The notes under the pieces are model-generated. The model was not told where the DNA came from and made no database searches. It saw nothing but the letters and a program-made list of their open reading frames with translations. Positions 7,415-24,255 of a stretch of 42,634 bases of DNA are shown here, in pieces (position 1 is the stretch's first letter; each line of letters starts with the position of its first letter). Source of the DNA: Bdellovibrionota bacterium. GTDB taxonomy: Bacteria > JAGRBM01. The translations under genes were made by a program, and so were the position numbers. The stretch covers positions 1 through 42,634 of the forward strand of contig JBFLVN010000002.1 in assembly GCA_040758475.1 (NCBI GenBank), written 5' to 3'.

Positions 7415-7427
7415 TCGTTTGATTTGG

Positions 7428-7466
7428 ACGGCCCGGCGGCTCAAGGCCGCCGGGCCGTTTGTCTCT
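7428..7466 (+). terminator. Rho-independent terminator
   Basis: A perfect 13-bp GC-rich stem pairs ACGGCCCGGCGGC (7428-7440) with GCCGCCGGGCCGT (7446-7458) around loop TCAAG, followed by TTTGTCTCT. It starts 14 nt after the stop at 7414. Confidence 0.65.
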
Positions 7467-7505
7467 GCCCGGTTGTTACTGGTTTAGTGGTTGGGGGAGG
7501 TTCTC

Positions 7506-8711
7506 ATGAAAGCCCGTTTCGTCCGCTTGGCGCTTTTCCTGGCTGCGCTCCTTTCGTCCGCTTCCGTGGCGAAGGCGCAGGAAGACGTCGCCACCGTCAC
7601 CGTCGAAGGATTCGAAGCGATCATCGGTGACAATCAGCAGATCGCCCGGGACAAGGCGATCGAACAAGCGCTTCGCAGCGCCGTCGAGCAGGTGGCCGGT
7701 ACGATCGTCTCCAGCCAGACGCTCGTCGAGAACTTCCAGCTCGTAAACGACAGCATCTACGCCAAGTCCCGCGGCTTCGTGAAGAGCCACAAGGTCCTCT
7801 CCGAAGGCGCGCCCGGGGATGGCACCTACAAAGTCACCGTCCAGGTCACGGTCGCCAAGGCCATGCTGCAGGAGTCCCTCAAGGATTTGGTCGAAGGGAC
7901 CATGCAGGTTACCAACAAGCCCCGCACCCTTTTTATGATCGCCGAACAACAGTACGGCGATACGGTCTACCACGCGTGGTGGACGTACTTGGAAGGGGTT
8001 AAGATGGGGGGGCACGCCGAATCCTTCGATCTAAATACCGTCGAGAACTCTTTCCTCGAAATTTTCACGAACAATTCTTTCCCCGTCGTGGACATCGCCA
8101 CGGCCAGCAAGAACATCAAAGTATCGAACGCCTTCGGGGTTGTGGATCTGACCGACAAGGCGGTGCGGGACTTGGGCAACCAGATGGCCGCCGAGATGGT
8201 TATTTACGGAAAGGCCTTCACCAAGAAGGGCCAGCAGATCCTCAATTCGCCCATGTATTCCTATTCAGCGAACATCTCTATCAAGGTGGTCAACACCGAT
8301 ACGGGCCGGGTCGTGACGAGCGCCGCTGAGTCAGTGACGATTCCCCATTCAATTCCGGAAGTGGGGACGACCGAGGCCATGAAACAGTGTGCCAAGAAGG
8401 TGGCCGACCTGATCATGCCCAAGATGATCACGACCATTGCGCAGAACAAGAGCGTCGAACTCCAGGTGACCTACGGCCGGTACAACGACCTTGCCAAGTT
8501 CAAGCAGGCCTTGAAGGAAGACATCCGCTCCGTCCAGGCGATCCACCAGCGGGCGGCCGCCAAGGGTTCCACCACGCTCGAACTCGATCTGAAGACCGGC
8601 ACGGCCCAGAGCATCGCCGATGAGATCGCCGTCCGGGAATTCAAGGAATTCCTGGTCGAGGTGGAGGAAGTCACCCAGAATACGATCAAGATTTCCCTGG
8701 TGAAAAAGTAA
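7506..8711 (+). CDS. Secreted FlgT-like protein (LPP20/FlgT-N-like domain plus TolB-N/CsgG-like alpha/beta domain plus C-terminal domain)
   Basis: Trimmed to ATG 7506 with GGGGGAGG RBS; signal peptide LFLAALLSSASVAKA|QE. The N-domain VTVEGFEAIIGDNQQIARDKAIEQALRSAVEQVAGTIVSSQTLVENFQLVNDSIYAKSRGFVKSHKVL..GTYKVTVQVTV has the FlgT-N/LPP20 pattern. The middle region is PRTLFMIAEQQ...FPVVD...AAEMVIYGKA. Confidence 0.6.
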   Translation: MKARFVRLALFLAALLSSASVAKAQEDVATVTVEGFEAIIGDNQQIARDKAIEQALRSAVEQVAGTIVSSQTLVENFQLVNDSIYAKSRGFVKSHKVLSEGAPGDGTYKVTVQVTVAKAMLQESLKDLVEGTMQVTNKPRTLFMIAEQQYGDTVYHAWWTYLEGVKMGGHAESFDLNTVENSFLEIFTNNSFPVVDIATASKNIKVSNAFGVVDLTDKAVRDLGNQMAAEMVIYGKAFTKKGQQILNSPMYSYSANISIKVVNTDTGRVVTSAAESVTIPHSIPEVGTTEAMKQCAKKVADLIMPKMITTIAQNKSVELQVTYGRYNDLAKFKQALKEDIRSVQAIHQRAAAKGSTTLELDLKTGTAQSIADEIAVREFKEFLVEVEEVTQNTIKISLVKK

Positions 8712-8787
8712 GAAACGTCGACTACAAACCCTCCGGCCCCGAAAGCCGGGGGGGGAGAAATTGGAAAGCGAAAGGGGTTTTAGGAAC

Positions 8788-9726
8788 ATGACGAAGATGG
8801 CCGGGAAAGCATGGTTTGTGGTTCTAGTGTTGGCAGTTGGTTTAAGCGGATGCCCTAAACCAACGCCGCCGCCGGACCCGCTCCAGAACAAGACCTACAC
8901 CCTCGAATACAAGGGCCCCAAGAAGCGGGTCGGCATCGTCAAGTTCGACAACAAGGCGAGCTACGCCAAGAAAAAGCGCGTGGGCGAAGCCATCGTGGAC
9001 ATCGTGACCACGGAACTCGCCAAGACCAAGGCGTTCATCGTCGTGGAACGCGCGGAATTGGACAAAGTCCTCCAGGAACAGGCCTTGGGGCAGTCGGGTG
9101 CCGTAAATCCGGCAACGGCCGCCAAGGCGGGCCGCGTGCTCGGCCTCCAGTCGCTCCTCATCGGTACGATCAGCGAGTTCGGCGTGACCCCTTCCGCCAC
9201 CGATCTCGTTCTCTTCAAGCAGAAGAAGCAGGAAGCCAAGGCGACCGTGGACGTGCGGCTCATCGACGCAACCACGGGCCAGATCCTTTATGCGGATTCG
9301 GGTAGTGGAGCGGGAAGCGTTACTTATAGAGAATTTCTCGGCATGGGTGCCAAGGGTGGTTACGACGAGAGTCTCGAACAATTCGCCGTTCGTAGCGCAG
9401 TCGTCCAGTTCATGCAGAACCTCATCAACCAGCTCGGCAAGACCGAGTGGTACGGCAAGGTCGTCAAGGCCAACGCCGGCGAGGGGACGGCCATCGTGAA
9501 CGCGGGCCAGGAAACGGGCCTCAACGTCGGCGACAAGATCGTCGTGAACACGCTGGGCGAGACCCTCACGGACCCTGACACGGGCATGGAATTAGGGCAG
9601 GAGTTAGGCCCCGTGGTGGGCGAACTCGAAGTCGTGAGCTTCTTCGGCCGCGACGCCGCCAAGTGCAAGATCGTAAGCGGCCGGAGCACCATCCAGGCCG
9701 GCCAGCAGGTGAGCCTCAAGAAGTAA
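8788..9726 (+). CDS. CsgG/HfaB-family outer-membrane lipoprotein with an extra C-terminal beta-rich domain
   Basis: Lipobox is LVLAVGLSGC. The CsgG-family core is RVGIVKFDNKA...GEAIVDIVTTELAKTKAFIVVERAELDKVLQEQALGQSG...AKAGRVLGLQSLLIGTISEFG. The C-terminal ~90 aa (WYGKVVKANAGEGTAIVNAGQETGLNVGDKIVV...VSLKK) is additional. Alternative start at ATG 8797. Confidence 0.85.
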   Translation: MTKMAGKAWFVVLVLAVGLSGCPKPTPPPDPLQNKTYTLEYKGPKKRVGIVKFDNKASYAKKKRVGEAIVDIVTTELAKTKAFIVVERAELDKVLQEQALGQSGAVNPATAAKAGRVLGLQSLLIGTISEFGVTPSATDLVLFKQKKQEAKATVDVRLIDATTGQILYADSGSGAGSVTYREFLGMGAKGGYDESLEQFAVRSAVVQFMQNLINQLGKTEWYGKVVKANAGEGTAIVNAGQETGLNVGDKIVVNTLGETLTDPDTGMELGQELGPVVGELEVVSFFGRDAAKCKIVSGRSTIQAGQQVSLKK

Positions 9727-9760
9727 TTTCCTCGGGCCAGGGATAGACAGGAGTGTTGAC

Positions 9761-10096
9761 ATGAAATCGTTTCGCCTGATTTCCGCTTCCTTGGTAATTG
9801 TGGCCCTCCTCGTGGGAGCCGGATGCGCCAGCCGTTCCGTCACGGGTGTTGGCAACGAAGGATTCGTCGTTTTCAGCGTCGAGCCCGACGACGCCGAACT
9901 CTGGGTGGACGGCGTGAAGGCGGGGCTCGTCAAGGACTACAACGGGAGCCGCGGGGTCCTTCAGCTGACGAGCGGCACCCACAAGATCGAGATCAAGAAG
10001 GAAGGCTACCAGTCCCACCGCAAGGAAGTTTTTGCCGGGGCCGGAGCCAAGCAGACCATTAGCGTCCGCCTTACGCCGGTTGCGCCGGCGCAGTAA
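9761..10096 (+). CDS. PEGA-domain lipoprotein
   Basis: GGAG RBS; signal/lipobox ASLVIVALLVGAGC. The PEGA pattern is FVVFSVEPDDAELWVDGVKAGLV...LQLTSGTHKIEIKKEGYQSHRKEV. Confidence 0.8.
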   Translation: MKSFRLISASLVIVALLVGAGCASRSVTGVGNEGFVVFSVEPDDAELWVDGVKAGLVKDYNGSRGVLQLTSGTHKIEIKKEGYQSHRKEVFAGAGAKQTISVRLTPVAPAQ

Positions 10097-10132
10097 CGGC
10101 GGGACTGGATCGGAAGAAGCGGGGAGGGACGC

Positions 10133-10960
10133 GTGAGCAAGCGGCGGCGGACAGCGGCGGTTGTGGCGGTCCTCGTCTTGCTGGCGGGCGCGGCACCCTC
10201 CTTCGCCGACCCAGCTCCTTCCGGAACGGGCGTCGTTACACGCCTCGAAGGAACGGCTTTCTGGTCCCTTTCCCAGGAAAAAGATTGGAAACCCCTCAAG
10301 CTCAAGGATACGGTGATCGAGGGGCGCTACATCCGGACGGAATCCAATTCCCGGATGGAAGTGACTCTCCCCGACGGCGGGGCCGTGCGCGTGGCGCCGG
10401 GAACGACGCTCTATCTCTCGAAACTTCTCTTCCCCAAAGACAAGAGTTCCAAGCAATTCGAGGCCAAGCTCTTTGTGGGGCGCCTCTGGGCCAAGGTCCA
10501 GGCGGTGACGGGCGGCGATTCCTTCTTCAAGGTCCGCACCGGTAATGCCGTCGCGGGCGTCCGCGGCACGGCCTTCCAGGTGAACTACGGCGGCCAGGAC
10601 GCCACTTTCAAGTGCTACGAAGGAAAGGTGGCCGTGCAGGCCGCGATGCAGGGTGGAACATCCCAGGTTCCCGGCGGACGGTACGAAGTTCCAGGACCCC
10701 AGCAGGTTCCGGGACCCCGCGAAGTTACGGTGGAAGAATGGACCCGCATCGTGAGCAGCTGGCAGTACGTAAGCGTTAACGCCCAGGGCGTCCCTTCCGA
10801 ACCCAAGGACATCGATCCCGCGGCCGATGCGTCGGATTCCTTCAGCATGTGGAACCGGGAACTCGACAACATCGCGTTGCCCGAGGCGGAAGAGAAGAAA
10901 TCAGATGATACCCCGGTGCCTCCGGCTCCGGAAGCTCCACCGGCCGAACCGGCCAAGTAA
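10133..10960 (+). CDS. Periplasmic FecR-domain protein with Pro-rich C-terminal tail (paralog 1)
   Basis: GTG start with GGGGAGGG RBS; signal peptide VAVLVLLAGAAPSFA|DP. The FecR-like core is VVTRLEGTAFWS..WKPLKLKDTVIEGRYIRTESNSRMEVTLPDGGAVRVAPGTTLYL...VRTGNAVAGVRGTAFQV. The tail is TPVPPAPEAPPAEPAK. Confidence 0.85.
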   Translation: MSKRRRTAAVVAVLVLLAGAAPSFADPAPSGTGVVTRLEGTAFWSLSQEKDWKPLKLKDTVIEGRYIRTESNSRMEVTLPDGGAVRVAPGTTLYLSKLLFPKDKSSKQFEAKLFVGRLWAKVQAVTGGDSFFKVRTGNAVAGVRGTAFQVNYGGQDATFKCYEGKVAVQAAMQGGTSQVPGGRYEVPGPQQVPGPREVTVEEWTRIVSSWQYVSVNAQGVPSEPKDIDPAADASDSFSMWNRELDNIALPEAEEKKSDDTPVPPAPEAPPAEPAK

Positions 10961-10996
10961 TCCAGCCGCGCCCAGGGGCGCCATCCCGAGGAACCC

Positions 10997-13900
10997 GTGA
11001 GCACCCCTCCGGAGAGCGCGGGTCGTCCAAGCCAAAAGACGAAACGATGGGTGCGTCTCCTGGTCTGGTCCCTTGCCGGAGGAGGGGCCGTCCTGGCGGC
11101 GCTGCTCGCATACCTCGTTTTCTCCTTCCCTTCCGAATGGGCCCGCGTCGAACTCGAGAAAAGGCTCTCGAAAACCCTTGGCGCCCGCGTGACGGTGGGG
11201 CATTTGGGGATCGACCTCCTGCACGGCCTGGAGGCCCGCGAGATTCGCGTCGCCCCGGAAAGCGAAGCCGCCTCCTGGTTTTCCCTCAAAAGCCTCATTC
11301 TGGAAGTTGAATTTTTTCCACTCTTGCGCGGTGAAGTCATTGTACGGGCCTTGCGATTAGAAGATTTGGACCTTCTTCTTGAAAAAGATTCCTCTGGCAA
11401 ATGGAATTGGGTTTTTCTAAATCCCGCTGAAAAGCCGGCCGCTACGCCAGAGCCCGCCGCCGCCACGCCGCCGGGACCCCTCGACCTCAAAGTCCGGATC
11501 GAAGAATTCGAAATCGCGCGGGCGAACTTCCACCTGCGGACGCCGGATTTCGCCCTGGATGCGGGCCCTTTCTGGCTTTCCGCCCAAGGCTCCCTCGAAA
11601 AAGACGGCCGGATCGACGCCAAGCTCTCCGCCCGGCGGGACGACGGAACCGCCGTCGCCGCTTCCTGGGATTTGGCCAAATCCAAAAACAACGCGAGCAT
11701 GGGTCTTGAGGGGGAGCTTTCCGCTTTCCTCGAAAAAGGCGATTTGGCGAACGCCCGTTTGACGTGGGATTTGAGCCCGCTCGCTCTTTCATCGGCGGGG
11801 CGGGAAGAGGAATTTTCGGAAGGGGCACGGATCGAATTGGAAGCGAGCGCCTCGCTCGCTTCGGCGAAGGGACAAGTTGGGCGCTTGAGTGTTGCCATTC
11901 CGGAAACTTTGAGCCTGGCGGCCTCCGCCTCTGCCGATTGGAGCGGACCCCTCAAAGCGGAAGTGCGTCTTTCCGAGCTGGAGCTTCTGCTTTCCGGCGC
12001 CTTGCGGCGAGCCCGGATTTTCATGGAAAAACCACCCCGTGTGGAGGGAACTCTTTCTCTCAAAGACCTCCTCGTTCAGGTTCAGCCGGAAGGGGCGAGC
12101 TCATCCACGCGGATTTCTGGTGGCATCGGATTTTCCGAAGGAGCCTTTGAGGCCAGCGGTGCCGTCATGGAAGGGCTTACCGCGAGCCTAAGCGCTTCCG
12201 ATCTGCGCTTGGGGGCCGGTGGCCTTCCCGAGGGCGGAGCGGTGCGGGGGGAGATCGGCTGGAAGGCTTTCGCCCGGGGCGCAGCCCTCGCCGTTTCCGG
12301 TGCTTCGTTCACGGCCGATGCGAAGGCCGAAGATGGGAAGACCCAAATCGCTTTGGACGGGAAGGCAGGTCTTGCCCTTTCAGCGGGAAGTGTCCGTTAC
12401 GATGGCCCTTTGTCCCTTTCGGCCGCGGGCCGTCTCGATTCCAAAGGAAAGCGCTTTGATCTTTCATCGGCCACTGCGGGGGTTAAAGCCCTTTCCCTCT
12501 CGGCCAGTGGATCATTTCCCTTGGAATCTGCTTCGGGTGATTTTCGTGCCAAGGCCGATGCGAACGTGGATGTTCCGGCGTTTCTCGAATCCTGGCTCCG
12601 GGTAGGCGGGACGCCTTCGGCGCTCGAAGTGGCTGGACTTGCGGGGAACGTGAAGCTCTCCGTTCGGGCGGACCGAAAAGGTAAAGAGCCTCTTTCGGGT
12701 GAAGCCGGCCTCTCCGCAAATCTTTTTACCGGGTCGAGCGGTTCTTTTTCCCTGAGCGAGGGGGTTTTCCATTTAGCGGCCAAGACCCGGCACCGGAAAG
12801 ATTTTTCGATGGAAACCGCCTCCGCCAAGGGTGAAGCGAGCGCCGCTTGGGTGGGCACTGGCGGGCGAGGAGCCAGGGACGCGCGCCTGGAATTGAATGC
12901 GGATATTTCGGGCAAGCCCTCGGAACAGGTCCTGGAGGCGAAGGCCGATCTTCGCGTCCGGAAACTTGAAGTGGACGACCCGAAAGCCAAGGCCCGGCTC
13001 GCCGAGGCGCCGCCGCTCCATCTCACCGCCCAGGCTTCGACCCAGCTTCAGAGTCTGGCCACAAACGTGAGTGCTTCTCTTGGACTGGGAGAATCAATCG
13101 GCTTGCGGGTCGCCGGAAATCTCTGGCCCAAGGAAGAACGGCTCGACCTCCAGGCCCGAAGTGCAGGGGATTGGGCGCTCTCTGAAATCCTGGCGATTCT
13201 GCCGACCTCAGTGCGCGCGCCACTTCGAGGCGGAACGGCGGGCGGAGTCCTCTCGTGGAATGCCCGCGCTTCCGGCCGGTATGCGAAAAAAGAAAAACAG
13301 GGATTCCCTCTCGACCTTCGAGGAAATGTGAATTGGCGGGGCGTCGATTTCTCCCTCGTCACCTCGGATATTTCGGTTTCCGGCCTTTCGGGAGAAGTCC
13401 GAATTCGTCCTGGAGAGGGGCGGCAGGGCGTGGAAGCCGCCGGGCATCTGCAAGCGGATTCGTCCCGTATTCCCGCGTTCCGTTCCGAAAAATTGGGACC
13501 TACAGTGGCGAGCTTTCGCGCCAAGACGGAAGATTTTTCCGAGTTTCAGATCGAGGAGTTATTTCTCTACAGCGACGCCTTGAAAACAGCCATCAAGGCG
13601 GGCGCGGAGATTCGGCCCGCGGCGAGTCCGCCGACTCTCTCCGTGCGGGCCAACGTCGTTCTTGGAACCCCGAAGCGATGGACCGTACGTCCCGGGATGG
13701 AACTGGCGGGAACTTTGAACCTCGCCCTTTCGGGGGAACGCGTGGGGGAGGGGCCCCTGCGCGTCCGGGGTGAGGCGGGCTTTTCGGATTTTTCAGCGTG
13801 GCTTGGGAAGAACGTCACCGTAGAAGGTGTCAGCGGCAAGCTGCCGCTCGTAACCGACCTCTCCCTGAGGGGTGCGCCACTTCTTTCGTACGAACCCCTG

Positions 13901-14614
13901 GTGGGCGCTGAAACTTCCTCCGGACCACTTCGTTCGGTCCTTTACCGCGATTTTCTGGCTCTCGACCCTCCCCCGGAAGAGCCGGGGCTGCGAATCGGCC
14001 GGATCGAAGCGGCCCGGATGGTCCTCTCGAAAGTCCACCTCGACGGCCGCCTGGAAGGGGCCGACGTCGCGGTGGACAATCTGAGCGCGGCCTTTTTGGA
14101 CGGGAGCGTGAGCGGAAACGCGCGGGTTCATCTCGAAAAGCCACTCTATGCTCAGGTTTCGCTGGGAGCCCGGGACTTGGATTTCCGCAGAATCATCCCG
14201 GCGGGACGTTTGGCAGGTTATTCGCGCAAGGACGTCGCTTCTTATCTCGTCAACGGCGACGTGAACGCCAAAGTATTTTTCGCTCCTTTGGACCTTCAGG
14301 GAGAAGTGGAACTCACCCGCGTGGGGAGGGAAGTCGTCTATGCGATCCTCGATTGGGTCGATCCCCAGCGGGCGAATGCCGGCATTACGAATGTCCGGCA
14401 GAAACTTGAGAAATACGCAGTGATTGGCCCCAAGATCGTTTCATTCAAGGCTGAGCACGGAAATGCAGACCTCAGCATTTTTATGCGAGAACAGGCTAAA
14501 GCTAGCCAATTGCACCTTTTGCTGGGTTATTGCGTTGTTACCAGGGGTTGCCAACTGGAATACACCATCCCGCGAATCGCCTTGAAATCGCTTTTGGGGG
14601 TCTATCTAAAATGA
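10997..14614 (+). CDS. AsmA-like / YdbH-like large envelope protein (N-terminal membrane anchor, about 1150 aa predicted beta-rich)
   Basis: GTG start after GAGGAA; single N-terminal TM helix WVRLLVWSLAGGGAVLAALLAYLVFSF. The body is long, repetitive and Ala/Gly/Ser/Leu-rich, as in AsmA-family groove proteins. Its stop overlaps the start of a DUF1318/YdbL-like gene (ATGA), mirroring E. coli ydbH-ynbE-ydbL. Confidence 0.6.
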   Translation: MSTPPESAGRPSQKTKRWVRLLVWSLAGGGAVLAALLAYLVFSFPSEWARVELEKRLSKTLGARVTVGHLGIDLLHGLEAREIRVAPESEAASWFSLKSLILEVEFFPLLRGEVIVRALRLEDLDLLLEKDSSGKWNWVFLNPAEKPAATPEPAAATPPGPLDLKVRIEEFEIARANFHLRTPDFALDAGPFWLSAQGSLEKDGRIDAKLSARRDDGTAVAASWDLAKSKNNASMGLEGELSAFLEKGDLANARLTWDLSPLALSSAGREEEFSEGARIELEASASLASAKGQVGRLSVAIPETLSLAASASADWSGPLKAEVRLSELELLLSGALRRARIFMEKPPRVEGTLSLKDLLVQVQPEGASSSTRISGGIGFSEGAFEASGAVMEGLTASLSASDLRLGAGGLPEGGAVRGEIGWKAFARGAALAVSGASFTADAKAEDGKTQIALDGKAGLALSAGSVRYDGPLSLSAAGRLDSKGKRFDLSSATAGVKALSLSASGSFPLESASGDFRAKADANVDVPAFLESWLRVGGTPSALEVAGLAGNVKLSVRADRKGKEPLSGEAGLSANLFTGSSGSFSLSEGVFHLAAKTRHRKDFSMETASAKGEASAAWVGTGGRGARDARLELNADISGKPSEQVLEAKADLRVRKLEVDDPKAKARLAEAPPLHLTAQASTQLQSLATNVSASLGLGESIGLRVAGNLWPKEERLDLQARSAGDWALSEILAILPTSVRAPLRGGTAGGVLSWNARASGRYAKKEKQGFPLDLRGNVNWRGVDFSLVTSDISVSGLSGEVRIRPGEGRQGVEAAGHLQADSSRIPAFRSEKLGPTVASFRAKTEDFSEFQIEELFLYSDALKTAIKAGAEIRPAASPPTLSVRANVVLGTPKRWTVRPGMELAGTLNLALSGERVGEGPLRVRGEAGFSDFSAWLGKNVTVEGVSGKLPLVTDLSLRGAPLLSYEPLVGAETSSGPLRSVLYRDFLALDPPPEEPGLRIGRIEAARMVLSKVHLDGRLEGADVAVDNLSAAFLDGSVSGNARVHLEKPLYAQVSLGARDLDFRRIIPAGRLAGYSRKDVASYLVNGDVNAKVFFAPLDLQGEVELTRVGREVVYAILDWVDPQRANAGITNVRQKLEKYAVIGPKIVSFKAEHGNADLSIFMREQAKASQLHLLLGYCVVTRGCQLEYTIPRIALKSLLGVYLK

Positions 14615-15243: not shown

Positions 15244-15244
15244 A

Positions 15245-18200
15245 ATGGGCCGCCAAGCCCTCACCACAAGGCGCTTTTTTGCGCCGCTGGCGCTGGCCTT
15301 GCTTTTGGGGGCTTGTGCCGGGCTGCTTCCTTCTTTTACAGCCCAGACAGGGTGGCGGGATTCTTTTCCCAAGAAAATCCCGGAGGCCCCCACTCCCTTG
15401 CCGGAGCGCCTCGTCGAACCCCTTCCCGTGACATTCGACGCGGCCGGTCACCTGGATCCTCTCGTCAATGAAAAAACCGGGCTTCTCCTCTACGCCTCCG
15501 ACCGGGGCGGGAATTGGGACCTTTGGGCAAGGCCGCTCATAAGCGGGCTCCCCCGGCTGCTCACCGATTGGCCTTCCCGCGAGACGGCGCCAGCCCTCTC
15601 TCCGGACGCAGAGCATCTTGTTTTCGTCTCGAACCGTCACGATCCGCAAGGCGATATCTACCGGGTTTCCATCGAGAATGGGACGCAGGAACGGGGGGAT
15701 GCGAAACCGGTAAGGCTTCCTAGGCCCCGTACGGAGGAAGCTTCGCCTCTGTGGCTTTCGGACAAGGAAATTCTTTTCACTTCGCTGCACGGCGGAACCT
15801 GGAAGCTCTTTCGTTACAACTGGGAAGAGTCAGGAGCCGGCCCGGGAGAAATAACCATGCCCCCGGTTTCGGACCACGAAGTCCGGATGCCTGCCCTTGC
15901 ACCTGCTCTTTCAAAAAATTCCCCTCGGGTGATCGCCTTTATCGCCCGGAGCGAAGAAGGCCCTTCTGGTCTTTACGTCTCATCACTTCCGGAAAAGGAC
16001 GCAGAACTCAAGGCCGTGCGGGTCTTCTCCGGCGCTCCTATCGAGAGCTATCCAGCTTGGGGAGAGATTGAAGAGGGGAATTGGGCCTGGCTCTATTACG
16101 CCCGTTATCTGGATGACACCAACCTGGACGGCCTCGTGACGCCAGAGGACAATTCTTCGCTTTGGCGCGTGCGGGTGAGCCTCATTCCCGGATCGGCCGG
16201 CCCCCTTGGCGAACCCGAACCGCTGACGGGCGGTGGTGGATACGATTTTTCTCCCAAGCCTTCAGAAGCGGGGCTTTATTTCATCCGTCAGGAGCAGGGG
16301 CGGGTGGGGATTTACCGCCTTCCTTTGGGAGGAAGGGCTGCCGGGCTCGAAGCTTCTGCTGCCCAGCTTTCCGCAATCCTCGAATGGGAAGCCCCTTACA
16401 GCCGGTTGCTGGCTCTCCGGTGGATTGCCGCCCAAGCAGGCCGGAGCGGAGAGCGTTCCCTTGCCGCGCGGGCCCGGTATGAGATCGCCGGAATTTTTGA
16501 AGAAATCGGCAACTTGGCTGCCGCTCTTTCAATGCACGGGAAATTAGTGGAGGAGGATGCGCCCGGTGTTTCGGCCCTCTCCAAACTAGCCATTGTACGC
16601 CTCGAATCCCGCGTCCTGGCCGCGGCGTCCCTCGGAAAAGACCGGAACCGGATCGTGGCGGAGGAAATCGCCTCCTATGAAACGAGGCTGCGGGAAGCAG
16701 CACAGGAAAGCAGCAAAGGAGGGGAACGCCTCCTGGCGCAAGCCCTCTTTGAACTCGCCCGCATCGAGCTCGATTTCGGATTTCCCGTAAGAGCGCTCGA
16801 TCGCATTTCAGAGATCGAGAAAAAGTATTCGAGCGAGCGTCCGGTCCTTGCCCATGCACGCCTCTTCCGGGCGGAAGTCTTCGCATCCCGGGGGAACCGG
16901 CCGGCGTTCCAAGAGGTGATCCTGGGCGTTCTGCGGGATTTTTCAGGAGAGACGCAGGTCGTCGCGGGTGCCATCCGGCGTCTTCTTTCCGAGACGGCGA
17001 GGCTCTATCCCGATATTCCAGACCGCATCGAAGCTTTCCGCCGGCTGACCGATGAATTCGCGGATGTCCCCCGGCTTTCAACAGCAGCCTCGCTCGAACT
17101 CGCCCGGCTTTACGAAGAAGCGGGCCGGTTATCGGCGGCGCGGCGGGAGTACGAGCACTTGCTCCGCGATCCCTCCCTGCTGCCGGAAGAGCGATTTTCC
17201 GCAGTCACAGGGCTTTCATTGGTATTGGCTTCCGAAGGGGAGCCCGATGCCGCTTTGCAAGCTTTGTCCGATGTGAAGGTGCCGGAAGGGGATATATCCC
17301 GCCTGGAGGCGCTTTTGCGGGAATGGGCGGCCCGCCTCTTGGAAGCGGCGGACCGGGCGCGCCGGGCAGGGCACCCTGCCGAGGCTCTGCGAATTTACGA
17401 AGCCATCGCTGCCCGTGTGCCAGAAGTGCCGGAAGCCCATTATGGCCGGATCGAATTGACGGAAAATCCTTCTTCCCTTTCGGGGGAATATGCCGCGAAG
17501 CTTCGGGATCATCCGGCCACGGCGCACTACGCCCTCGCATTGATCGTGCTTCGCAAAGACGGTACGCCGGACCTTTCCGACATCCTCTCCGATCACGTGG
17601 TTCCAGCCATCGTGCTGGACCCCGGTATCCCCGCGTTCCACCATCTCAAGGGATACATCCACGAAATCAGCGAGACCGTCTACGGCCGCCAGAAGGGAGC
17701 CGGCGGGCTCGAAGAGGCCATCGACGCGTATCGAAGTGCCCTCTACCTCGTTGGAAACGACGGCCGCCAGAAAGCCCGGCGGCAGGAACTCCTGCTCGCC
17801 CTCGCGAACGCTTATTTCAGTTTTCCCACCCCCAACCATTCCGAAGCCTGGCGGTATTACAAGGAATGGCTTGCTTCGGGAGGAAGCACGGACGATCCCC
17901 AGCGGAAACTTCTTCTCGAAGAACGCATGGCCCGATCCGCTTTCCATTCGGGCGAACTCGACTCGGCCATCGCCCATGCGGCCCGCGGGGCTGAAATTGC
18001 CCGCGGGCTTGGGCTTTTGTCGAGGCGTCTTAAGCTTCTCGAATACGAAGCCTTCTGCCTTCAGGAGAAAGGCGAGTACGGTCATGCGGCCGAACGCCTG
18101 GAGCAAACCCTTTTGGAAGGAGCGCGGCGGCTGGACAAGCCGAGCCGGGCCCGCCTTCACAGGAGTCTTGCCTACAACCGGTACCGCTTGGGGAGGGAGG

Positions 18201-21200
18201 AAGAGGCCCTGGGGGACTTGCAGGAAGCGCGGGATCTCCTGGCGGCTTCGGGAGGGGCATCCTACGGACGCGGCCGCTGGGACGACAAAGTGCGAAAGCG
18301 CCTTGGCCTCACTCCTCAAGGGGAATTGGCGGTCAATTTCACTTACGAAGGCCGCGTTCTCGAAGAAATGGGCGATGTCCGAGCGGCGGTGGACGCTCAG
18401 CGGGAAAAGATCGCTCTTCTCGCCGATCCGGGGAAGAAAGGCGGGGAAGATCAACTCCAGTTCTGGGAACGCCGTTCGATCGGATGGAACCGGATCGGCC
18501 GCCTCGAGTACGAACGGGCCGTTTCGGAAGACGCCCGCCAGGCCCTCGAAGCTTCTCTAGAGGAAGCGCGCCTGGCCGTTCAATTGCGCGGCAAGGGGCT
18601 GGCGGCGGAAGGGCTCGCGCGTCTTTCGATGGAACTCAAAGCCGGCGGGTCTTCAACCCCGGAAGGGGTGGACGCGCTTCTCTCGGAAGCCATCCGCGAT
18701 CTCGATGACCTCCGCCAATCGGGAGGAAAACCCGATCTTCTCGTTCTAGCGCGGCTCTATCATGCGCGGGCACTCCTGCGTGTTTCTGTACGGGGACAAA
18801 AGGAGAAGAATGGGATCGGGTGGCTTGATCCTTTAGAGGATTTCGCCGCGGCGGAGCGGATGCTCCTGCTCGCGGAACGCCAAGGGATGCGGGGGCTTTC
18901 GGGCCTTCGCATCTCCATCGGCTTGAACGAGGCCGCTGCTTTGGAGCGCCTGGGGTTCTCGGCTCTGGCATTAGAAAAGACGAGGGAATCCGCGTCGGGA
19001 GCCAGGCGATTCCGGCTCCCGTGTCTTGAAATGATCGCTGATTTCTCGCTCGTACCTTTTGATCCCGAGGCCCTCGAACGGGCCCATGGGAAGGCGCTCG
19101 ACTTGCCGCCCGCCCTCTGCCGGGAAGTTTCTCCCCATCAATTGCGCCGGTTCCATACCGCCCTCTACGAAGCGCTTCTCGAAAAAACGGGCGATCCCGC
19201 CGAGAGCCTTGCTTTGGTGGAGGAGAAGGCCCAGTTAGATCTGGCGGTGATTACCGGCGGCCCGGGAATTGCCTTTGGCGAGCCGCTCGAACAAGAGGCG
19301 TGGAGCCGCGCCCGGATGGCTTTGGATCAGGCGGAGGCGGCCCTTGCCGCTGTTCAGGAGTTCAAGTTTGTCGAAGGCTCCCTGGAGAGTGAGCGGGCGC
19401 TTGCGGTTCTTCAAGAGAGCGCGGACAAAACCATCAAAGAATCGGGTAGTGCCTGGATGCGCCTTTTCTCCGATTACCCTTCTCTTGCGCGCCTTCTTCT
19501 CCCTTCTGTTCCAAAGACTGCTCAGATAGCAGAAGCCCTCGGAAACGCGGCTTTGCTTCGCGTGAAACGATCGGGAGATAAAATTCTCGTTTGGCGTGTG
19601 GATTCCAAGAGCGTCGAACGATTCGATTCTTCCCTGCCGCCGGAATTGGATGGGCTCGTGAACGCGTGGCGGGTTTCCGGCCGGGCGACCGATGGCGATT
19701 GGGCGGACCTTCGGCGCTGGTGGAGCATGCTCCTCGCCCCTGTTCGTGAAGGGCTCGGCCACTCGCTCTACATCATCGCCGATGACGATTTGGCGGTTCT
19801 CCCCTGGGGCGAAGTGGGGGACGTATTGGGCGCAAAGCCTCCAGCCGTGGCGCAGGCGGGATCGCTCGCCCACCTGTGGGCCGTCCACGAGCGGCGGAAT
19901 GGGAACAAGCGTCGCGGGATTCTAGTGGCCCAGACGGACGCGGCTTCGGATGAAGACTTGAACGCTCCTTGGCTCGTCTCGTTCCACGAAAAACTGGCCC
20001 AGCGAATTACGGGGCTTCGCGGTTTTTATTTCCGGGACAACGGCCGCGAAGAGTTCGTCAAGACGATCCGGGATGCCGGTAGCCAGCAACACTTCATTCA
20101 CGTCTTTTCCGAGCTTTCATTCGCCAGGGGTCTTCCCCTCCAAACGAGCCTTTCTTTTCCATCTCCACCATTGGAAGGAGCCCTCCCGGATCTTTCCCTC
20201 CGTGCATGGACGGAACTCTCGGCTCAGGCGAACGTAGCCGTTTTCGAGAACGCAACAGGGGAATTTTCGGGGGAAGGCCTTTCGGCCTTCGCTTATTTCT
20301 CAGCCCTTGCCGGGATACCGAGTGTGGTCATGCAACGGGTTTCCACGAGCAGGGTACCGCCACCGGAAGAACTTTCGTTCTATCTCTCTGTTTACGATGC
20401 CCTCGTTCCGGACAAAGAAGGAAAATATCTTCCCGTGGGGGAAGCGCTCCTTCGGGCCCGGTCTTCTTCGAAGGCGCCTGGCGATGTGCGCCTTCTCGGG
20501 CATTTGGGGCTTGCCTCTGAAGAAGCCCTCTCCATCGCTCAGAAGGAATTGAATCGCTTTGCCGGCAGCGCGGTGCAGGCGGCCCAGGCGGGGGATTTCG
20601 GAAAGGCGGCCCGTTTCGCCCAGCGGGCCGTGCAGTTCATGGACGTGGTGGGCGTTCCCGACCAGCCCCTTTCGCAGATGCTCAGCGTGGCGGCGACGAC
20701 GCTCAAGAAATCGAACCAACTCGAAGGGGCCATCGCCTACGAAGACCGGCAGGCAAAACTCCTCGAGCGCGCGGGCGCCTTGCCCGCCCTGGTGCAAGCG
20801 CTCTTTTTCCTGGGGAAAGACCTCTCCCAACTCGGCCGCCACGAGGAAGCCCAGAGTGCCTTGGGCCGGGCGGTCGAATTCGCCCGGAAGCTCGGCAAGA
20901 AGGATTTCGAAATCATCGTCCTCTCGGAACTCGCCCGCTCGCTGGAGTTGGGGGGGAAACCCGTTGAGGCCATGGCCCGGTACGGCGAAGCCCTGGCTTT
21001 GGCAAGTGAAACGGGCGACAAGATTTCCGCCGAAGAGCTTGAATACAACGCCGGGCGAGTTGCCCACGAGCGGCTGGGCGACGAATCCTTGGCCGAGAAA
21101 CACCTCTCAGCGGCTTTGAGTATTGCCGAATCCCTGGGCAAGGGGGCGGAGCGGAACGCGGCGAGAGACGCCCTTACCCTCTCACTTACGCAGTTGTCCC

Positions 21201-23251
21201 GGGGCCGTTTCCGGGCTGCTTTGGAGGTTCTTGAAAAGCTTCTTCCTCTGGCCGGGCGTTTGGGGGACAAGGCCCTGGAAGCCCAGGGGCTCGTTTACCG
21301 GGGGGCCGCCCTTCGGGAGACAGGGCGCCTTCGGGAGGCCCTCTCCGATCTCAAGCAGGCGGAAAGGCTTGCGGGAGAAGCCAAGGTGCAGGCCGTCCTG
21401 GCCGACGCTTCTTCGGCGGCTTCGCTCGTCCTCCTCGATTTAGGCCAGACGGGCGAAGCCAGGGAAAAGGCTCAAAAGGCTCTCGATTTATCGGACAATG
21501 ATTTCGCCCGGGCGGCGGCGTCTCACAATCTGGCCCTCGTCTATCTGGAGGCCGGGGATTTCGGGGCTGCGCGGGAACTAGCAGCCAAGGCGCTCGACCT
21601 TGCCCGCAAACGAAACGCCGCGGCCGCGGAAGCCGATGAGCTATTTCTCCTGGCCGGCATCGGACGGGGGGAAGGAAGAGACCGGAGACGGGTTCTCGAA
21701 GAACTGGCATCGGTCTGCGAGAAATACATGGCGGCTGGGCTTCTCGTCCGCGGCCTTGAATGCCGTGTGGCATTTCTCGAATGGGGCGGAGAGCTTCCAG
21801 ATACGGCGGGACTCGAAAGGGCGGTGGGGGAACTTCAGCGCCAAGACCTTCTCGCCCGGCTTTATTTCCTGCGCGGTGATTTCCAAAAAGCGGCGGAAGC
21901 TTTTCTTCTTGCGGAGCCTTCTTCCGCTCGTTGGCAAGAACGCCGTGGCTTCGATCCGGAAAGGGGCATGAGCGCGGCGCGGGAGGCGGTTTTCGGCCTC
22001 GCCAAGGAAGGGAAAATCGAGGAAGCCCATTCCTTGTGGGAGCTTTCTCGCGCCGCGCGCCGCCGGGCGCTCTTGGCCCTGGAATCGCCGCGCCTTTCCC
22101 GGGAACGGGGTGGCCCGCTCGTGGAAAAACTCTTCACCCTCTGGGCCGAGGCGCGGAATGAAGCCTCTCCCCAGGAACTTGCCGCTCTCCGTGGTCAAGC
22201 GGATGCCGCCGCGCTGGAACTTCAAAAACTCCATCCCGAAACCCACGCGCTTCTTTTTTCTTCAGGCAATTCCCCCGTCCTTCGCCAGAAGGAGCTTGGC
22301 GATGGAGAAATCCTTCTGGACTTTGTTGCCGGCAGGGAACGCACTTTCGTTTTTGCTTTGAGTGCCGCTGCTCCAGAAGGGTTTTGGGTGGAGGAAGGAT
22401 CGAAGAACCTCGGGCAAAGGGCCAAAGCCTTCCGGGAGATCGTTGCCTCTTTCGGCCGCTACGAGGAAGAAAGAAAACAGCTGTTTGAGAAATTACTCGC
22501 GCCCGCTTTCAAGGACGGCATCCAGCGCTTTGTCGTTATCTCGGACGAACAGCTTGCTGGTCTTCTTTTTGAAGCACTGATTCCGGATTCTTTTTCTGTT
22601 TCCCTTTCGCGTCTTGCGAGCCTCGCCCTTCCCCTCCGGCGGGGAAGAACTTCCTTTCCGGGCCTCGCCATCGCGGTCTTCGGTGATTTTCCTGCTGAAT
22701 CGTTTGCGGGAGCCCTTCCCCCTCCCGTCCGGCAGCGGCCTTCGCCTTCGCAGCGGGCCCTTTGGGATAAGGAAATTCTCGGCCTTGCACGGGCGTCCGG
22801 GATTTTTCAGTACCAGCGGGCAGGCGATGTCTCGGAGAAAGGCCCCGTTCTTCCGGGTGCTACTACTCTCGCCATTCATTGCGCTTCCGCGGCTTCTGGG
22901 AACCCAGTCTCGCAGACGCGTTGTGGCGGGAAAGAAGGCTTTCTGCTGGCAAGCATTGAAGGGTTGGATCGCCCTCCCGTGCTTCTGGGGCTTCCCGGGC
23001 TTGCGGAACTCTCTTCCCAAGAGGTTTACGAGTTATCCCTTTGGGGCGAGTGGATGACGGAAGGCGCAGCGGCCGTATTCGGCGCAGGACGCCATCCCGT
23101 CGCCGGGGCCAGGTTCGCCAAATACTTCTACGGGGGCCTTTCTCGAAAATCGCCCCTGTCATCTTTCGTTGACGCCAGGGGCCAAGTACGTGAAATCTTT
23201 GGGCATCCAGCCTATTGGGCAGGGTTTTTCTACCAAGGCCCTCTCGACTAG
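15245..23251 (+). CDS. Giant (2668 aa) lipoprotein: TolB-like PD40 beta-propeller, TPR array, CHAT-like module 1, TPR array, CHAT-like module 2
   Basis: Trimmed to ATG 15245, 1 nt after the upstream stop. Lipobox is LALALLLGAC. PD40-like repeats are LLLYASDRGGNWDLWARPL and PALSPDAEHLVFVSNRHDPQGDIYRVSI. There are many TPR-like helices. CHAT-like hallmarks are YIIADDDLAVLPWGEV, HFIHVFSE, VVISDEQLAGLLFEALIP, and the C-terminal GHPAYWAGFFYQGPLD. Confidence 0.85.
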   Translation: MGRQALTTRRFFAPLALALLLGACAGLLPSFTAQTGWRDSFPKKIPEAPTPLPERLVEPLPVTFDAAGHLDPLVNEKTGLLLYASDRGGNWDLWARPLISGLPRLLTDWPSRETAPALSPDAEHLVFVSNRHDPQGDIYRVSIENGTQERGDAKPVRLPRPRTEEASPLWLSDKEILFTSLHGGTWKLFRYNWEESGAGPGEITMPPVSDHEVRMPALAPALSKNSPRVIAFIARSEEGPSGLYVSSLPEKDAELKAVRVFSGAPIESYPAWGEIEEGNWAWLYYARYLDDTNLDGLVTPEDNSSLWRVRVSLIPGSAGPLGEPEPLTGGGGYDFSPKPSEAGLYFIRQEQGRVGIYRLPLGGRAAGLEASAAQLSAILEWEAPYSRLLALRWIAAQAGRSGERSLAARARYEIAGIFEEIGNLAAALSMHGKLVEEDAPGVSALSKLAIVRLESRVLAAASLGKDRNRIVAEEIASYETRLREAAQESSKGGERLLAQALFELARIELDFGFPVRALDRISEIEKKYSSERPVLAHARLFRAEVFASRGNRPAFQEVILGVLRDFSGETQVVAGAIRRLLSETARLYPDIPDRIEAFRRLTDEFADVPRLSTAASLELARLYEEAGRLSAARREYEHLLRDPSLLPEERFSAVTGLSLVLASEGEPDAALQALSDVKVPEGDISRLEALLREWAARLLEAADRARRAGHPAEALRIYEAIAARVPEVPEAHYGRIELTENPSSLSGEYAAKLRDHPATAHYALALIVLRKDGTPDLSDILSDHVVPAIVLDPGIPAFHHLKGYIHEISETVYGRQKGAGGLEEAIDAYRSALYLVGNDGRQKARRQELLLALANAYFSFPTPNHSEAWRYYKEWLASGGSTDDPQRKLLLEERMARSAFHSGELDSAIAHAARGAEIARGLGLLSRRLKLLEYEAFCLQEKGEYGHAAERLEQTLLEGARRLDKPSRARLHRSLAYNRYRLGREEEALGDLQEARDLLAASGGASYGRGRWDDKVRKRLGLTPQGELAVNFTYEGRVLEEMGDVRAAVDAQREKIALLADPGKKGGEDQLQFWERRSIGWNRIGRLEYERAVSEDARQALEASLEEARLAVQLRGKGLAAEGLARLSMELKAGGSSTPEGVDALLSEAIRDLDDLRQSGGKPDLLVLARLYHARALLRVSVRGQKEKNGIGWLDPLEDFAAAERMLLLAERQGMRGLSGLRISIGLNEAAALERLGFSALALEKTRESASGARRFRLPCLEMIADFSLVPFDPEALERAHGKALDLPPALCREVSPHQLRRFHTALYEALLEKTGDPAESLALVEEKAQLDLAVITGGPGIAFGEPLEQEAWSRARMALDQAEAALAAVQEFKFVEGSLESERALAVLQESADKTIKESGSAWMRLFSDYPSLARLLLPSVPKTAQIAEALGNAALLRVKRSGDKILVWRVDSKSVERFDSSLPPELDGLVNAWRVSGRATDGDWADLRRWWSMLLAPVREGLGHSLYIIADDDLAVLPWGEVGDVLGAKPPAVAQAGSLAHLWAVHERRNGNKRRGILVAQTDAASDEDLNAPWLVSFHEKLAQRITGLRGFYFRDNGREEFVKTIRDAGSQQHFIHVFSELSFARGLPLQTSLSFPSPPLEGALPDLSLRAWTELSAQANVAVFENATGEFSGEGLSAFAYFSALAGIPSVVMQRVSTSRVPPPEELSFYLSVYDALVPDKEGKYLPVGEALLRARSSSKAPGDVRLLGHLGLASEEALSIAQKELNRFAGSAVQAAQAGDFGKAARFAQRAVQFMDVVGVPDQPLSQMLSVAATTLKKSNQLEGAIAYEDRQAKLLERAGALPALVQALFFLGKDLSQLGRHEEAQSALGRAVEFARKLGKKDFEIIVLSELARSLELGGKPVEAMARYGEALALASETGDKISAEELEYNAGRVAHERLGDESLAEKHLSAALSIAESLGKGAERNAARDALTLSLTQLSRGRFRAALEVLEKLLPLAGRLGDKALEAQGLVYRGAALRETGRLREALSDLKQAERLAGEAKVQAVLADASSAASLVLLDLGQTGEAREKAQKALDLSDNDFARAAASHNLALVYLEAGDFGAARELAAKALDLARKRNAAAAEADELFLLAGIGRGEGRDRRRVLEELASVCEKYMAAGLLVRGLECRVAFLEWGGELPDTAGLERAVGELQRQDLLARLYFLRGDFQKAAEAFLLAEPSSARWQERRGFDPERGMSAAREAVFGLAKEGKIEEAHSLWELSRAARRRALLALESPRLSRERGGPLVEKLFTLWAEARNEASPQELAALRGQADAAALELQKLHPETHALLFSSGNSPVLRQKELGDGEILLDFVAGRERTFVFALSAAAPEGFWVEEGSKNLGQRAKAFREIVASFGRYEEERKQLFEKLLAPAFKDGIQRFVVISDEQLAGLLFEALIPDSFSVSLSRLASLALPLRRGRTSFPGLAIAVFGDFPAESFAGALPPPVRQRPSPSQRALWDKEILGLARASGIFQYQRAGDVSEKGPVLPGATTLAIHCASAASGNPVSQTRCGGKEGFLLASIEGLDRPPVLLGLPGLAELSSQEVYELSLWGEWMTEGAAAVFGAGRHPVAGARFAKYFYGGLSRKSPLSSFVDARGQVREIFGHPAYWAGFFYQGPLD

Positions 23252-23289
23252 ATTGGAAAATTAAGGCCGGGAGCGAAGGAATTTTTCCC

Positions 23290-24246
23290 ATGACTCTCCG
23301 AAATCTTTTCAAGCGCAGCCTCGTTTTCACTGGTTCAGCGGCAGTATTGCTCTCGGCTTCCGATTGGGCCGGACGCGCGGCGAACCTCGCCCGCGCGGCT
23401 GAAAGCACCGGCAAGAAGGGCCTCGTCACTTATGTCGAGGGACAGGCCCAGCACCGGGCAGGAGAAAAGAGTTGGGACCCGCTCCAGACGAACGAAGGCG
23501 TCGAGAGCGGCGAAACAGTCCAGACCAAGCGCAAGACACGCGCCGAGATCGAACTCGATCCGGCCAAGGTCGTGCGCCTCGATGAAAACACGATCGTTGA
23601 TCTCGTGAAACTCTTCGAAGAAGAGCAACAGAAGAAAGCCGTTACCCTGGAAGTCGACCAGGGGCAGGTCTGGTCCCAGCTCGCCTCGCTCGGCGGGGAC
23701 GAGTCCTTCAAGATTTCTTCGCCGCTGGCGGCCGCCTCCGTGCGCGGCACGGTTTTCAATTTCGGCGTCGGTTCCAGTGGCAAGTCCACCCAGGTGGACG
23801 TCTTCTCGGGTTCCGTCGAAGTTTACAATCCCTTCCCCACGCAGAAGTACACGCCCGGCATGCCGGGCGGGTTCCAGGCTCCCCGGCAGGTGCAGGGCCC
23901 CCAGCAGGTGGCTGGTCCCAAGGAAGTGAGCCTCGAAGAGTGGTACTACATCGTCCGCGAGATGCAGCGGATCCGCATTACCCAGGGGCAGACCCAGTTC
24001 GACGTGCAAGACATCCCAGCCGATGAAAAAGCGGGTTCCTGGCGGAAGTGGAACGAAGAGCGCGACCGGCTCCGTGCGGCCCGCATGGGCCACCGGCCAA
24101 TCTCGGAACCCCCGCCCCCTACGCCACCAGCTCCCGAAACTCCAGCGGCACCGCAGGTTCCTTCGGCCCCTGAAGCGCCGGCCGCTCCGATGCCCGAAAC
24201 TCCGGCTCAGCAGCCGCCTGCGCCGGAAGCTCCAGCGGGCCAGTAA
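23290..24246 (+). CDS. Periplasmic FecR-domain protein with Pro-rich C-terminal tail (paralog 2)
   Basis: Trimmed to ATG 23290. The FecR-like core is GLVTYVEGQAQHRAGEKSWDPLQTNEGVESGETVQTKRKTRAEIELDPAKVVRLDENTIVDL...SSPLAAASVRGTVFNF. It shares the motif VQGPQQVAGPKEVSLEEWYYIV with 10133..10960 (VPGPQQVPGPREVTVEEWTRIV). The tail is PPPPTPPAPETPAAPQVPSAPEAPAAPMPETPAQQPPAPEAPAGQ. Confidence 0.85.
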   Translation: MTLRNLFKRSLVFTGSAAVLLSASDWAGRAANLARAAESTGKKGLVTYVEGQAQHRAGEKSWDPLQTNEGVESGETVQTKRKTRAEIELDPAKVVRLDENTIVDLVKLFEEEQQKKAVTLEVDQGQVWSQLASLGGDESFKISSPLAAASVRGTVFNFGVGSSGKSTQVDVFSGSVEVYNPFPTQKYTPGMPGGFQAPRQVQGPQQVAGPKEVSLEEWYYIVREMQRIRITQGQTQFDVQDIPADEKAGSWRKWNEERDRLRAARMGHRPISEPPPPTPPAPETPAAPQVPSAPEAPAAPMPETPAQQPPAPEAPAGQ

Positions 24247-24255
24247 CTTTCTTAT

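Follow-up and report, generated by a model that had tools for sequence, protein, structure and literature searches.

An envelope gene block of a Bdellovibrionota bacterium appears to join two separately distributed modules

The DNA analysed here, below called the window, is a 42,634-nucleotide stretch from a Bdellovibrionota bacterium (positions 1 to 42,634 of contig JBFLVN010000002.1, assembly GCA_040758475.1). It contains a block of eight genes on the + strand, G1–G8 at 7506–24246, preceded by four further genes for exported proteins, U1–U4. A first-pass annotation made from the letters alone had described G1–G8 as one eight-gene envelope system bounded upstream by a terminator. Comparison with related loci divides the region differently. 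Module A covers 5324–10960 and consists of U3, U4, G1, G2, G3 and G4, with the paralogue U1 upstream, and module B covers 10997–23251 and consists of G5, G6 and G7, followed by G8 in this clade. The features of the region are as follows.

1681–3126, + strand: U1, secreted LPP20/FlgP-like protein (Pfam LPP20, 30.2 bits)
3166–5064, + strand: U2, secreted transglutaminase-like protein with four carboxypeptidase-regulatory-like domains (Transglut_core 80.8 bits, CarboxypepD_reg 116 bits)
5133–5161, + strand: sigma-70-like promoter match, TTGACA-17-TATGGT, in the 259-nt gap 5' of U3; a consensus match only
5324–6175, + strand: U3, secreted FlgP/LPP20-like protein with a FlgP-type beta-hairpin insert and a C-terminal domain; opens module A
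6245–7414, + strand: U4, lipoprotein whose N-terminal part contains TPRs and whose conserved C-terminal half matches SLH weakly
7426–7460, + strand: hairpin, GC-rich and of 16 bp, in the U4-G1 gap
7506–8711, + strand: G1, secreted three-domain FlgT homologue (Pfam FlgT_N 30.9 bits, FlgO sub-threshold)
8788–9726, + strand: G2, lipoprotein combining a CsgG-fold domain with a beta domain of the FlgT-C/TsaP type (Pfam CsgG 98 bits)
9761–10096, + strand: G3, small PEGA-domain lipoprotein (Pfam PEGA 23.8 bits)
10133–10960, + strand: G4, secreted stand-alone FecR-fold protein with a Pro-rich tail (Pfam FecR 65 bits)
10997–14614, + strand: G5, 1205-aa inner-membrane-anchored AsmA-like protein; opens module B
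14611–15243, + strand: G6, lipidated YdbL (DUF1318) homologue, the start overlapping the G5 stop by 4 nt
15245–23251, + strand: G7, lipoprotein of 2668 aa; PD40 beta-propeller, long TPR region and two regions homologous to CHAT
23290–24246, + strand: G8, second secreted FecR-fold protein (Pfam FecR 54.8 bits)

The open reading frame (ORF) table and the translations reproduce the eight same-strand genes exactly, with intergenic gaps of 76, 34, 36, 36, -4, 1 and 38 nt, and Shine-Dalgarno-like purine runs are found 5' of most of the starts. Judged from the N-termini of the translations, G1, G4 and G8 start with a cleavable signal peptide; G2, G3, G6 and G7 each carry a lipobox (LSGC, GAGC, FAAC and LGAC respectively), and G5 begins with an uncleaved hydrophobic transmembrane anchor. 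All products of the block are therefore extracytoplasmic, as had been proposed, and the estimate of about 22.6 kb of envelope-only coding is confirmed, the stretch being 1681–24246. The promoter-like site at 5133–5161 is the only one within 5000–24800, and the genes downstream of it may be co-transcribed.

The 91-nt gap between U4 and G1 (7415–7505) holds the hairpin that had been taken for a strong terminator at 7428–7466. The structure itself is real, the gap as a whole folding to -45.8 kcal/mol with z = -4.1, but its U-tract is poor (GUUUGUCUCU), a terminator scan does not include the hairpin at 7426–7460 in its list, and conserved synteny runs across it uninterrupted from U3 through U4 to G1. 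The same intergenic region of the closest relative, locus L001, has no comparable fold (z +0.9). The hairpin is not a module boundary, and it could be an intra-operon attenuator or an RNA-stabilising element. The U4 ORF opens with GTG at 6221, and the ribosome-binding site AAGGAGAAAGAGGAG is located 5' of ATG 6245, so the start of U4 is probably at 6245, which gives a U3-U4 gap of 69 nt.

The family of G1 is large, with 1,606 clusters at E<=1e-30 in a profile search, and its close relatives are few, the nearest named ones being metagenome-assembled genomes labelled Chrysiogenetes with 63–65% identity. A scan with one genome per species gave 146 relatives, and 80 loci were kept, from Nitrospirota, Thermodesulfobacteriota, Myxococcota, KSB1, Calditrichota-type, Bdellovibrio and other genomes. 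The six-frame ORFs of these loci were searched with the twelve window proteins, and iterated profiles were added for G5–G7. In 63 of 71 loci the G1 homologue is closely preceded by an LPP20-like gene, and in about 28 loci a homologue of U4, with scores up to E 1e-130, lies between the two. On the other side a CsgG or a FecR gene follows the G1 homologue in 50 of 62 loci (CsgG in 30, FecR in 31, both in 11), and a PEGA gene like G3 accompanies the module in five of the 62, including L015 and L016. G5, G6 and G7 are found in none of the 80 loci, even with the iterated profiles. The conserved unit, present across genomes of several phyla, is consequently U3-(U4)-G1-(G2)-(G3)-(G4); it starts at U3 (5324), 2.2 kb upstream of the proposed first gene, crosses the hairpin and ends at G4.

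The composition of module A varies between lineages. The trio U3-G1-FecR is its form in Myxococcota, and U1-like genes accompany the G1 homologues in Nitrospirota loci, U1 being present also in the clade relative L001. U2 adjoins the module only in L001 and L002 and is thus a clade-specific neighbour. A Nitrospirota-type variant (L003 4204–9960, and also L008, L009, L020 and L021) has extra genes between the LPP20 genes and the G1 homologue, encoding a 900-aa GNA1162-NosD beta-helix protein, a CHASE2-guanylate cyclase and an additional CsgG/FlgO protein. A gene for an MshEN-T2SSE ATPase is found on the opposite strand just 3' of the module in L003 (13146–15461), L156 (20191–21993) and L157 (20023–21843); these represent two distant lineages, the gene is not present in the window, and the location may be a coincidence. 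In L090 the FecR partner of a distant G1 homologue (11164–11934) carries an MtxA_N domain (PF24045).

Module B has a distribution of its own. The family of G7 comprises PD40-TPR-CHAT proteins of 2550–2900 aa in about 39 clusters, most of them carrying PF12770, and a metagenome scan with an N-terminal motif specific to the family gave 65 loci. A homologue of G6 is located directly 5' of the giant gene in about 31 of these, with a homologue of G5 preceding the pair in at least 19, and in the remaining loci the giant gene is alone. Neither a module A gene nor a FecR gene was found near the giant gene in any of the 65, so that G8 is absent from them. An annotated example is L089, with genes for a DUF748 protein (1190 aa), a DUF1318 protein and a CHAT giant in this order. 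The two modules can also be present in the same genome without being linked: the single 6.9-Mb contig JADJBV010000001.1 contains a U3-G1-FecR trio at 2.23 Mb (L038), and, some 2 Mb from it, a G6-like gene followed by a CHAT giant at 4.22–4.25 Mb (L087). An AbiEi/AbiEii pair lies just 3' of the giant gene in L087.

The fused array of ten genes, from U3 and U4 through G1 to G8, is found only in the clade of the window, represented by L001/L156 (GCA_040960215.1), L002 and L157. The giant proteins of these relatives are 37–42% identical to that of the window, G8 follows the giant gene in L156 and L157, and the genes after G8 differ. G8 is a clade-specific addition to module B.

The gene neighbourhood on which the idea of one eight-gene system depended is accordingly conserved only in part: U3–G8 are syntenic in L156 and L157, but elsewhere the order splits into module A (80 loci) and module B (about half of the 65), the trio G5-G6-G7 recurring without any module A gene. 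The most probable interpretation, to which we give about an even chance of being correct, is that two independent envelope modules lie head to tail in the block, a juxtaposition specific to this clade, one a periplasmic ring or scaffold set at the outer membrane and the other a lipid-bridge module. The strongest competing explanation is that all eight genes, or the whole of U1–G8, form a single operon for one integrated trans-envelope apparatus. The close spacing on one strand, from -4 to 76 nt, would fit such a machine, as would the retention of the full U3–G8 array in L156 and L157 in spite of the diverged giants, with flanks that differ after G8 so that the array ends there; co-adaptation could be reflected in two changes specific to the clade, in which CHAT catalysis was lost and G8 gained. 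Against this, G5, G6 and G7 never occur with module A in the 80 loci, nor module A genes with the giant in the 65, the two modules are unlinked in JADJBV010000001.1, and the proposed 5' boundary splits the conserved U3-U4-G1 unit. A single machine is thus unlikely.

Several of the predicted proteins of module A are related to one set of flagellar proteins. In a profile search of PDB sequences, residues 50–143 of U3 align with residues 70–162 of Campylobacter jejuni FlgP (9hmf_C; E 5.4e-10), interrupted by only one gap of one residue, an alignment that spans the region of the FlgP beta-hairpin insert, and Vibrio FlgP chains are matched too. Residues 91–282 of U3 also match 5jir_B (E 3.5e-6), deposited as an OOP-family OmpA-OmpF porin and presumably Tp0624 of Treponema pallidum, which suggests that the U3 architecture also exists fused to an OmpA-like domain. 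U1 is a paralogue of U3. It has, at about residues 230–400 and between the LPP20 domain and the C-terminal domain, a Lys/Glu-rich coiled-coil-like stretch of about 150 residues followed by Ala/Pro/Gly-rich low complexity, an insert which U3 does not have. In U4 the lipobox Cys is invariant across 25 homologues.

G1 consists of an SHS2/FlgP-like N-terminal domain, a middle domain with the FlgO/CsgG fold and an alpha/beta C-terminal domain. Its profile matches FlgO at E 2e-4 and FlgP (9hmf_C) at E 9e-4, profile positions 47–122 aligning with FlgP 89–164, and the closest folds to its AlphaFold 2 (AF2) model are FlgT in 8z5n_0 (an LPHT-ring structure) and in 3w1e, with E 1e-10 over about 410 columns and a low TM-score of 0.24–0.29. 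The middle domain also resembles the folds of CsgG, GNA1162, PelC and LpoB. The initial calls of a FlgT-like, a PEGA and two FecR proteins are all upheld by Pfam (FlgT_N 30.9, PEGA 23.8, FecR 65 and 55 bits). Since the FlgT-like, CsgG-like and LPP20 genes are all kin of the H-ring and basal-disk proteins of flagella, the list of parts is less mixed than it seemed.

This homology also raises the question whether the module A products are true accessories of the flagellar motor, of the H-ring or basal-disk kind, encoded apart from the other flagellar genes. They are directly homologous to FlgT, FlgP and FlgO, and flagellated species exist in many of the carrier groups, such as Nitrospirota, Desulfobacterota and Bdellovibrio. 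However, 19 core flagellar proteins of E. coli match nothing in the window or in the 1.17 Mb around the 80 G1 homologues (within about 10 kb of each), no flagellar families occur in the Pfam-annotated neighbourhoods of module A, and the constant partners, i.e. the FecR protein, the TPR-SLH lipoprotein and the PEGA protein, are not known motor parts. In addition, Myxococcota loci carry the U3-G1-FecR trio, and cultured Myxococcota are not known to have flagella. A role as motor accessories is therefore rather improbable, somewhat more so than the single machine.

The first-pass annotation called G2 CsgG-like, a designation that is right for the family and misleading for the overall structure. 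Pfam CsgG (PF03783) matches with 98 bits against a cut-off of 20.8, homologues are labelled CsgG in the source databases, and the profile aligns with E. coli CsgG at E 6.5e-18 over CsgG residues 5–203, including the first hairpin region. The C-terminal domain matches TsaP (E 1.7e-7), and the AF2 model (predicted local distance difference test, pLDDT, 83.8) gives TM-scores of 0.61 and 0.56 to FlgT (8z5n_0 and 3w1e) compared with 0.34–0.37 to CsgG, indicating that G2 as modelled is most like domains M and C of FlgT. The monomer model has one long hairpin (122–160), with a highly charged tip (KQKKQEAK), and none before the helix at 194–217, and the CsgG profile alignment stops at residue 203.

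If G2 were an outer-membrane secretion channel of the CsgG type, its neighbours would be accessory factors and substrates of a curli-like or new export system. The lipoprotein nature of G2 and the family match would agree with this, but the fold is nearer to FlgT, the single modelled hairpin has a charged tip, and no CsgA, CsgB, CsgE or CsgF families are found by Pfam among the window ORFs, which makes a channel improbable. Of the two roles first suggested for the block, an outer-membrane-anchored scaffold is compatible with the homologies, and the export apparatus loses its main prop, because in structure G2 is closer to FlgT than to the CsgG channel and the model lacks the second membrane hairpin. 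As first reported, the usual partners are missing: curli, flagellar, sigma-factor, TonB-receptor and cas genes are not detected by Pfam among the other ORFs of the window.

In G4 and G8 the signal sequence directly precedes the FecR domain. Despite clear FecR domains in both, it is very improbable that they are FecR-type trans-envelope sensors acting through an unlinked extracytoplasmic function (ECF) sigma factor, as they have no cytoplasmic anti-sigma domain or internal transmembrane helix, the window contains no sigma factor or TonB receptor, and they resemble the stand-alone leptospiral LipL45/Lsa33 class. For G4 there are weak NCBIfam matches to Leptospira Lsa33 and LipL45. A lead to the LipL46/LipL45 proteins of Leptospira was dropped, the NCBIfam matches being weak and below threshold (34 bits against 400) and no literature linking them having been found.

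In module B, G5 had been called YdbH-like, which is not supported. Its Pfam matches are to AsmA (PF05170, 39.1 bits, cut-off 29.8), DUF748 (49.8 bits) and the N-terminal region of YhdP, all at the N-terminus of G5, and its homologues also match the C-terminal region of AsmA. With hhalign the G5 family gives 0.1% against E. coli YdbH, which rules out that G5 is YdbH, 16.6% against YhdP and 4.6% against TamB, the last two over the N-terminus only. G5 is a generic AsmA-like protein only. A second AsmA-like gene is located on the - strand at 32438–35836, about 8 kb 3' of the block; it encodes 1132 aa with a match of 77 bits to the C-terminal region of YhdP and is a paralogue of the YhdP/TamB type.

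The YdbL-like call for G6 stands, the Pfam DUF1318 match of 26.9 bits being just under the cut-off of 27 and rescued by hhalign, where the G6 family matches E. coli YdbL over residues 23–107 (95%, E 3.5e-8). The Cys is invariant in the family, a motif of the RTALENQVLG type is conserved, and there is an extra conserved N-terminal segment. A fusion of YnbE and YdbL in G6 was considered and discarded, the YnbE part being unsupported (hhalign 3% for the G6 family). The junctions of -4 and 1 nt leave no room for a small YnbE-like ORF between G5, G6 and G7.

For G7 the description as a giant TolB-TPR-CHAT lipoprotein holds in part. Pfam detects PD40 and TPR in the whole protein and no CHAT; CHAT (PF12770) is obtained with 24.9 bits when residues 1489–1702 are scanned alone. 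The NCBIfam TolB models reach 26–30 bits against cut-offs of 343–405, so G7 is not TolB and has generic PD40 repeats only. There are two CHAT-homologous regions, at about residues 1441–1730 and 2365–2668, the latter homologous to the canonical CHAT of family members. In this C-terminal region SHGEF is replaced and LSACQTG has become LLGLPG, so that both residues of the dyad are lost, and IHVFSE and FENATG stand at the motif positions of the middle region. The His and Cys of the middle region are missing in every family member aligned over the motif columns. In the C-terminal region, the canonical members all keep the Cys motif (SAC, once SSC) and also the catalytic His, mostly as HG; the loss of the His-Cys dyad here is seen in the clade of the window. 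G7 as an active caspase-like protease is thus ruled out, the dyad being gone from both regions. Overall, the domain calls largely hold in the profile hidden Markov model searches, with corrections for G2, G5 and the dyad-less CHAT of G7.

Other observations concern the surroundings of the block. Long antisense ORFs on the - strand at 1150–3633 (827 aa), 5213–7444 (743 aa) and 10615–12063 (482 aa) are taken as non-coding artefacts, because the GC content is about 61% and there are clear genes on the sense strand opposite them. 3' of the SulP gene lie a glucose/sorbosone dehydrogenase-cytochrome c fusion (26183–28375) and an SLT transglycosylase with three LysM domains (28415–30604), and thus the SulP side of the window also has several exported or cell-wall-acting proteins.

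Several points weigh against the interpretation as two independent modules for a ring or scaffold and a lipid bridge. U4 exceeds the SLH cut-off of 20.8 bits only narrowly, with 21.3 bits (TPR families are also matched by Pfam), and the U4 profile finds only generic TPR matches in the PDB. The AF2 monomer of G1 is of moderate confidence only, with a pLDDT of 74, and its hairpin region is modelled as a low-confidence helix. G5 lacks specific similarity to YdbH, and even at E<=10 it has no YdbH-specific Pfam match; nor is there a YnbE homologue. Finally, the ten-gene fusion persists although the giants have diverged to 37–42% identity, which argues for a functional link between the modules and is not explained by two modules alone. 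The persistent fusion hints that such a link would be located at the inner face of the outer membrane.

The homologies, the separate distributions of the modules, the lost catalytic residues and the fusion in the clade are observations; from them, and with these reservations, a mechanism can be proposed for the two-module interpretation. The proteins of module A would form, beneath the outer membrane, a ring, disk or lattice held by lipid anchors, with the same contacts between subunits as in their flagellar relatives, and U4 may tether this structure to the cell wall. It would work independently of the flagellum, and the FecR-fold and PEGA proteins would be accessory parts. Module B would be an intermembrane bridge of the AsmA type, possibly transporting lipids, with the lipidated YdbL homologue G6 as the partner on the outer-membrane side. 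The giant protein would be a regulator dedicated to this bridge. In most lineages, where the C-terminal dyad is intact, it could be a periplasmic protease or regulator; since both CHAT regions lack the dyad in the window's clade, G7 here can only scaffold or bind. A bolder version, which we put forward as speculation and consider unlikely, is that module A forms a free-standing, flagellum-independent ring or disk of FlgP/FlgT-like proteins, with a G1 family that is common in phyla little studied so far, that the H ring and basal disk of polar flagella and TsaP of pili were recruited from this non-flagellar stock, and that in this clade it is coupled through the giant pseudo-protease scaffold to the AsmA-like lipid bridge, as one complex for outer-membrane support and lipid supply.

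If module A forms rings independently of the flagellum, it would be a tangible candidate for the structure from which high-torque flagellar motors derived their accessory disks, and also a widespread envelope structure that has so far not been described. Module B connects a dedicated TPR-CHAT giant with a YdbL homologue and an AsmA-like protein. The E. coli model already includes the turnover of YdbL by DegP, a protease of the periplasm, and a hard-wired protease partner that is dead in one clade may therefore provide a handle on the regulation of lipid bridges. Both ideas, the flagellum-independent rings and the protease-linked bridge, rest on comparison of sequences and structures.

The first-pass annotation knew of no described system with this composition. 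Its observation holds for the most part, its reading as one unprecedented system only partly, the boundaries being wrong and three domain labels in need of correction. No paper was found that describes module A or module B, or, in searches aimed at these combinations, that brings together LPP20, FlgT, CsgG and FecR, or CHAT, DUF1318 and AsmA. The block is made up of two modules rather than one new system, each of its parts is a member of a known family, and the modules themselves both seem to be undescribed.

Among known structures, the Vibrio H ring, with 26 FlgT and 26 FlgP subunits (PMC13626733), and the Campylobacter basal disk, whose concentric rings are formed by FlgP (PMC12222027), are the closest to module A. 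The hairpin insert of FlgP marks the ring-forming subset of a broad family (PMC12222027), and U1 and U3 have the FlgP SHS2 domain with this insert. G1 has the three domains of FlgT with a FlgO-like middle domain, G2 is similar to FlgT domains M and C (TM 0.61), and the proteins are secreted, with G2, U4 and G3 lipid-anchored. Module A differs from both in having no flagellar genes nearby, in the window or in the 80 related loci, and in its partners, a FecR-fold protein, a TPR-SLH lipoprotein and a PEGA lipoprotein; in sequence, its identity with the flagellar proteins reaches no more than about 13–15%. A non-flagellar parallel is TsaP of type IV pili, which binds peptidoglycan and forms a periplasmic ring under the outer membrane, and whose FlgT-C-like domains ring a secretin (10.1101/2020.05.29.123786). 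The C-terminal domain of G2 is alike, but module A has no LysM, secretin or pilus genes, and G2 is lipid-anchored and carries a CsgG-fold domain. G2 resembles the CsgG curli channel in its Pfam family, in being a lipoprotein and in a homologous core that includes the first hairpin region, whereas its model lacks the second membrane hairpin, it has an extra FlgT-C domain, it is closer to FlgT and it has no curli partners. G4 and G8 differ from FecR-type anti-sigma factors in consisting only of a signal peptide and a FecR domain, with no sigma factor or TonB receptor in the window.

For module B the nearest system is the E. coli bridge of YdbH and the lipoprotein YnbE, which is modulated by YdbL, a protein degraded by DegP unless bound to YnbE (PMC13464000). 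The order is similar, with the AsmA-like, inner-membrane-anchored G5 followed by the YdbL homologue G6 at a stop/start overlap. The differences are that G5 is not specifically YdbH-like, that YnbE is missing, that G6 is itself lipidated with an extra N-terminal segment, and that a gene for a PD40-TPR-CHAT protein of 2600–2900 aa comes next. That a TPR-CHAT protein can work in the periplasm is known from the anti-sigma factor DdvA (PMC11506125). Unlike DdvA and the TPR-CHAT proteases craspase and separase, G7 of the window is lipidated, carries a PD40 propeller at its N-terminus, lies outside any anti-sigma or cas context and lacks the His and Cys in both CHAT regions; like them, it has a TPR array followed by a CHAT-fold domain, and the canonical members of its family keep the HG and SAC motifs.

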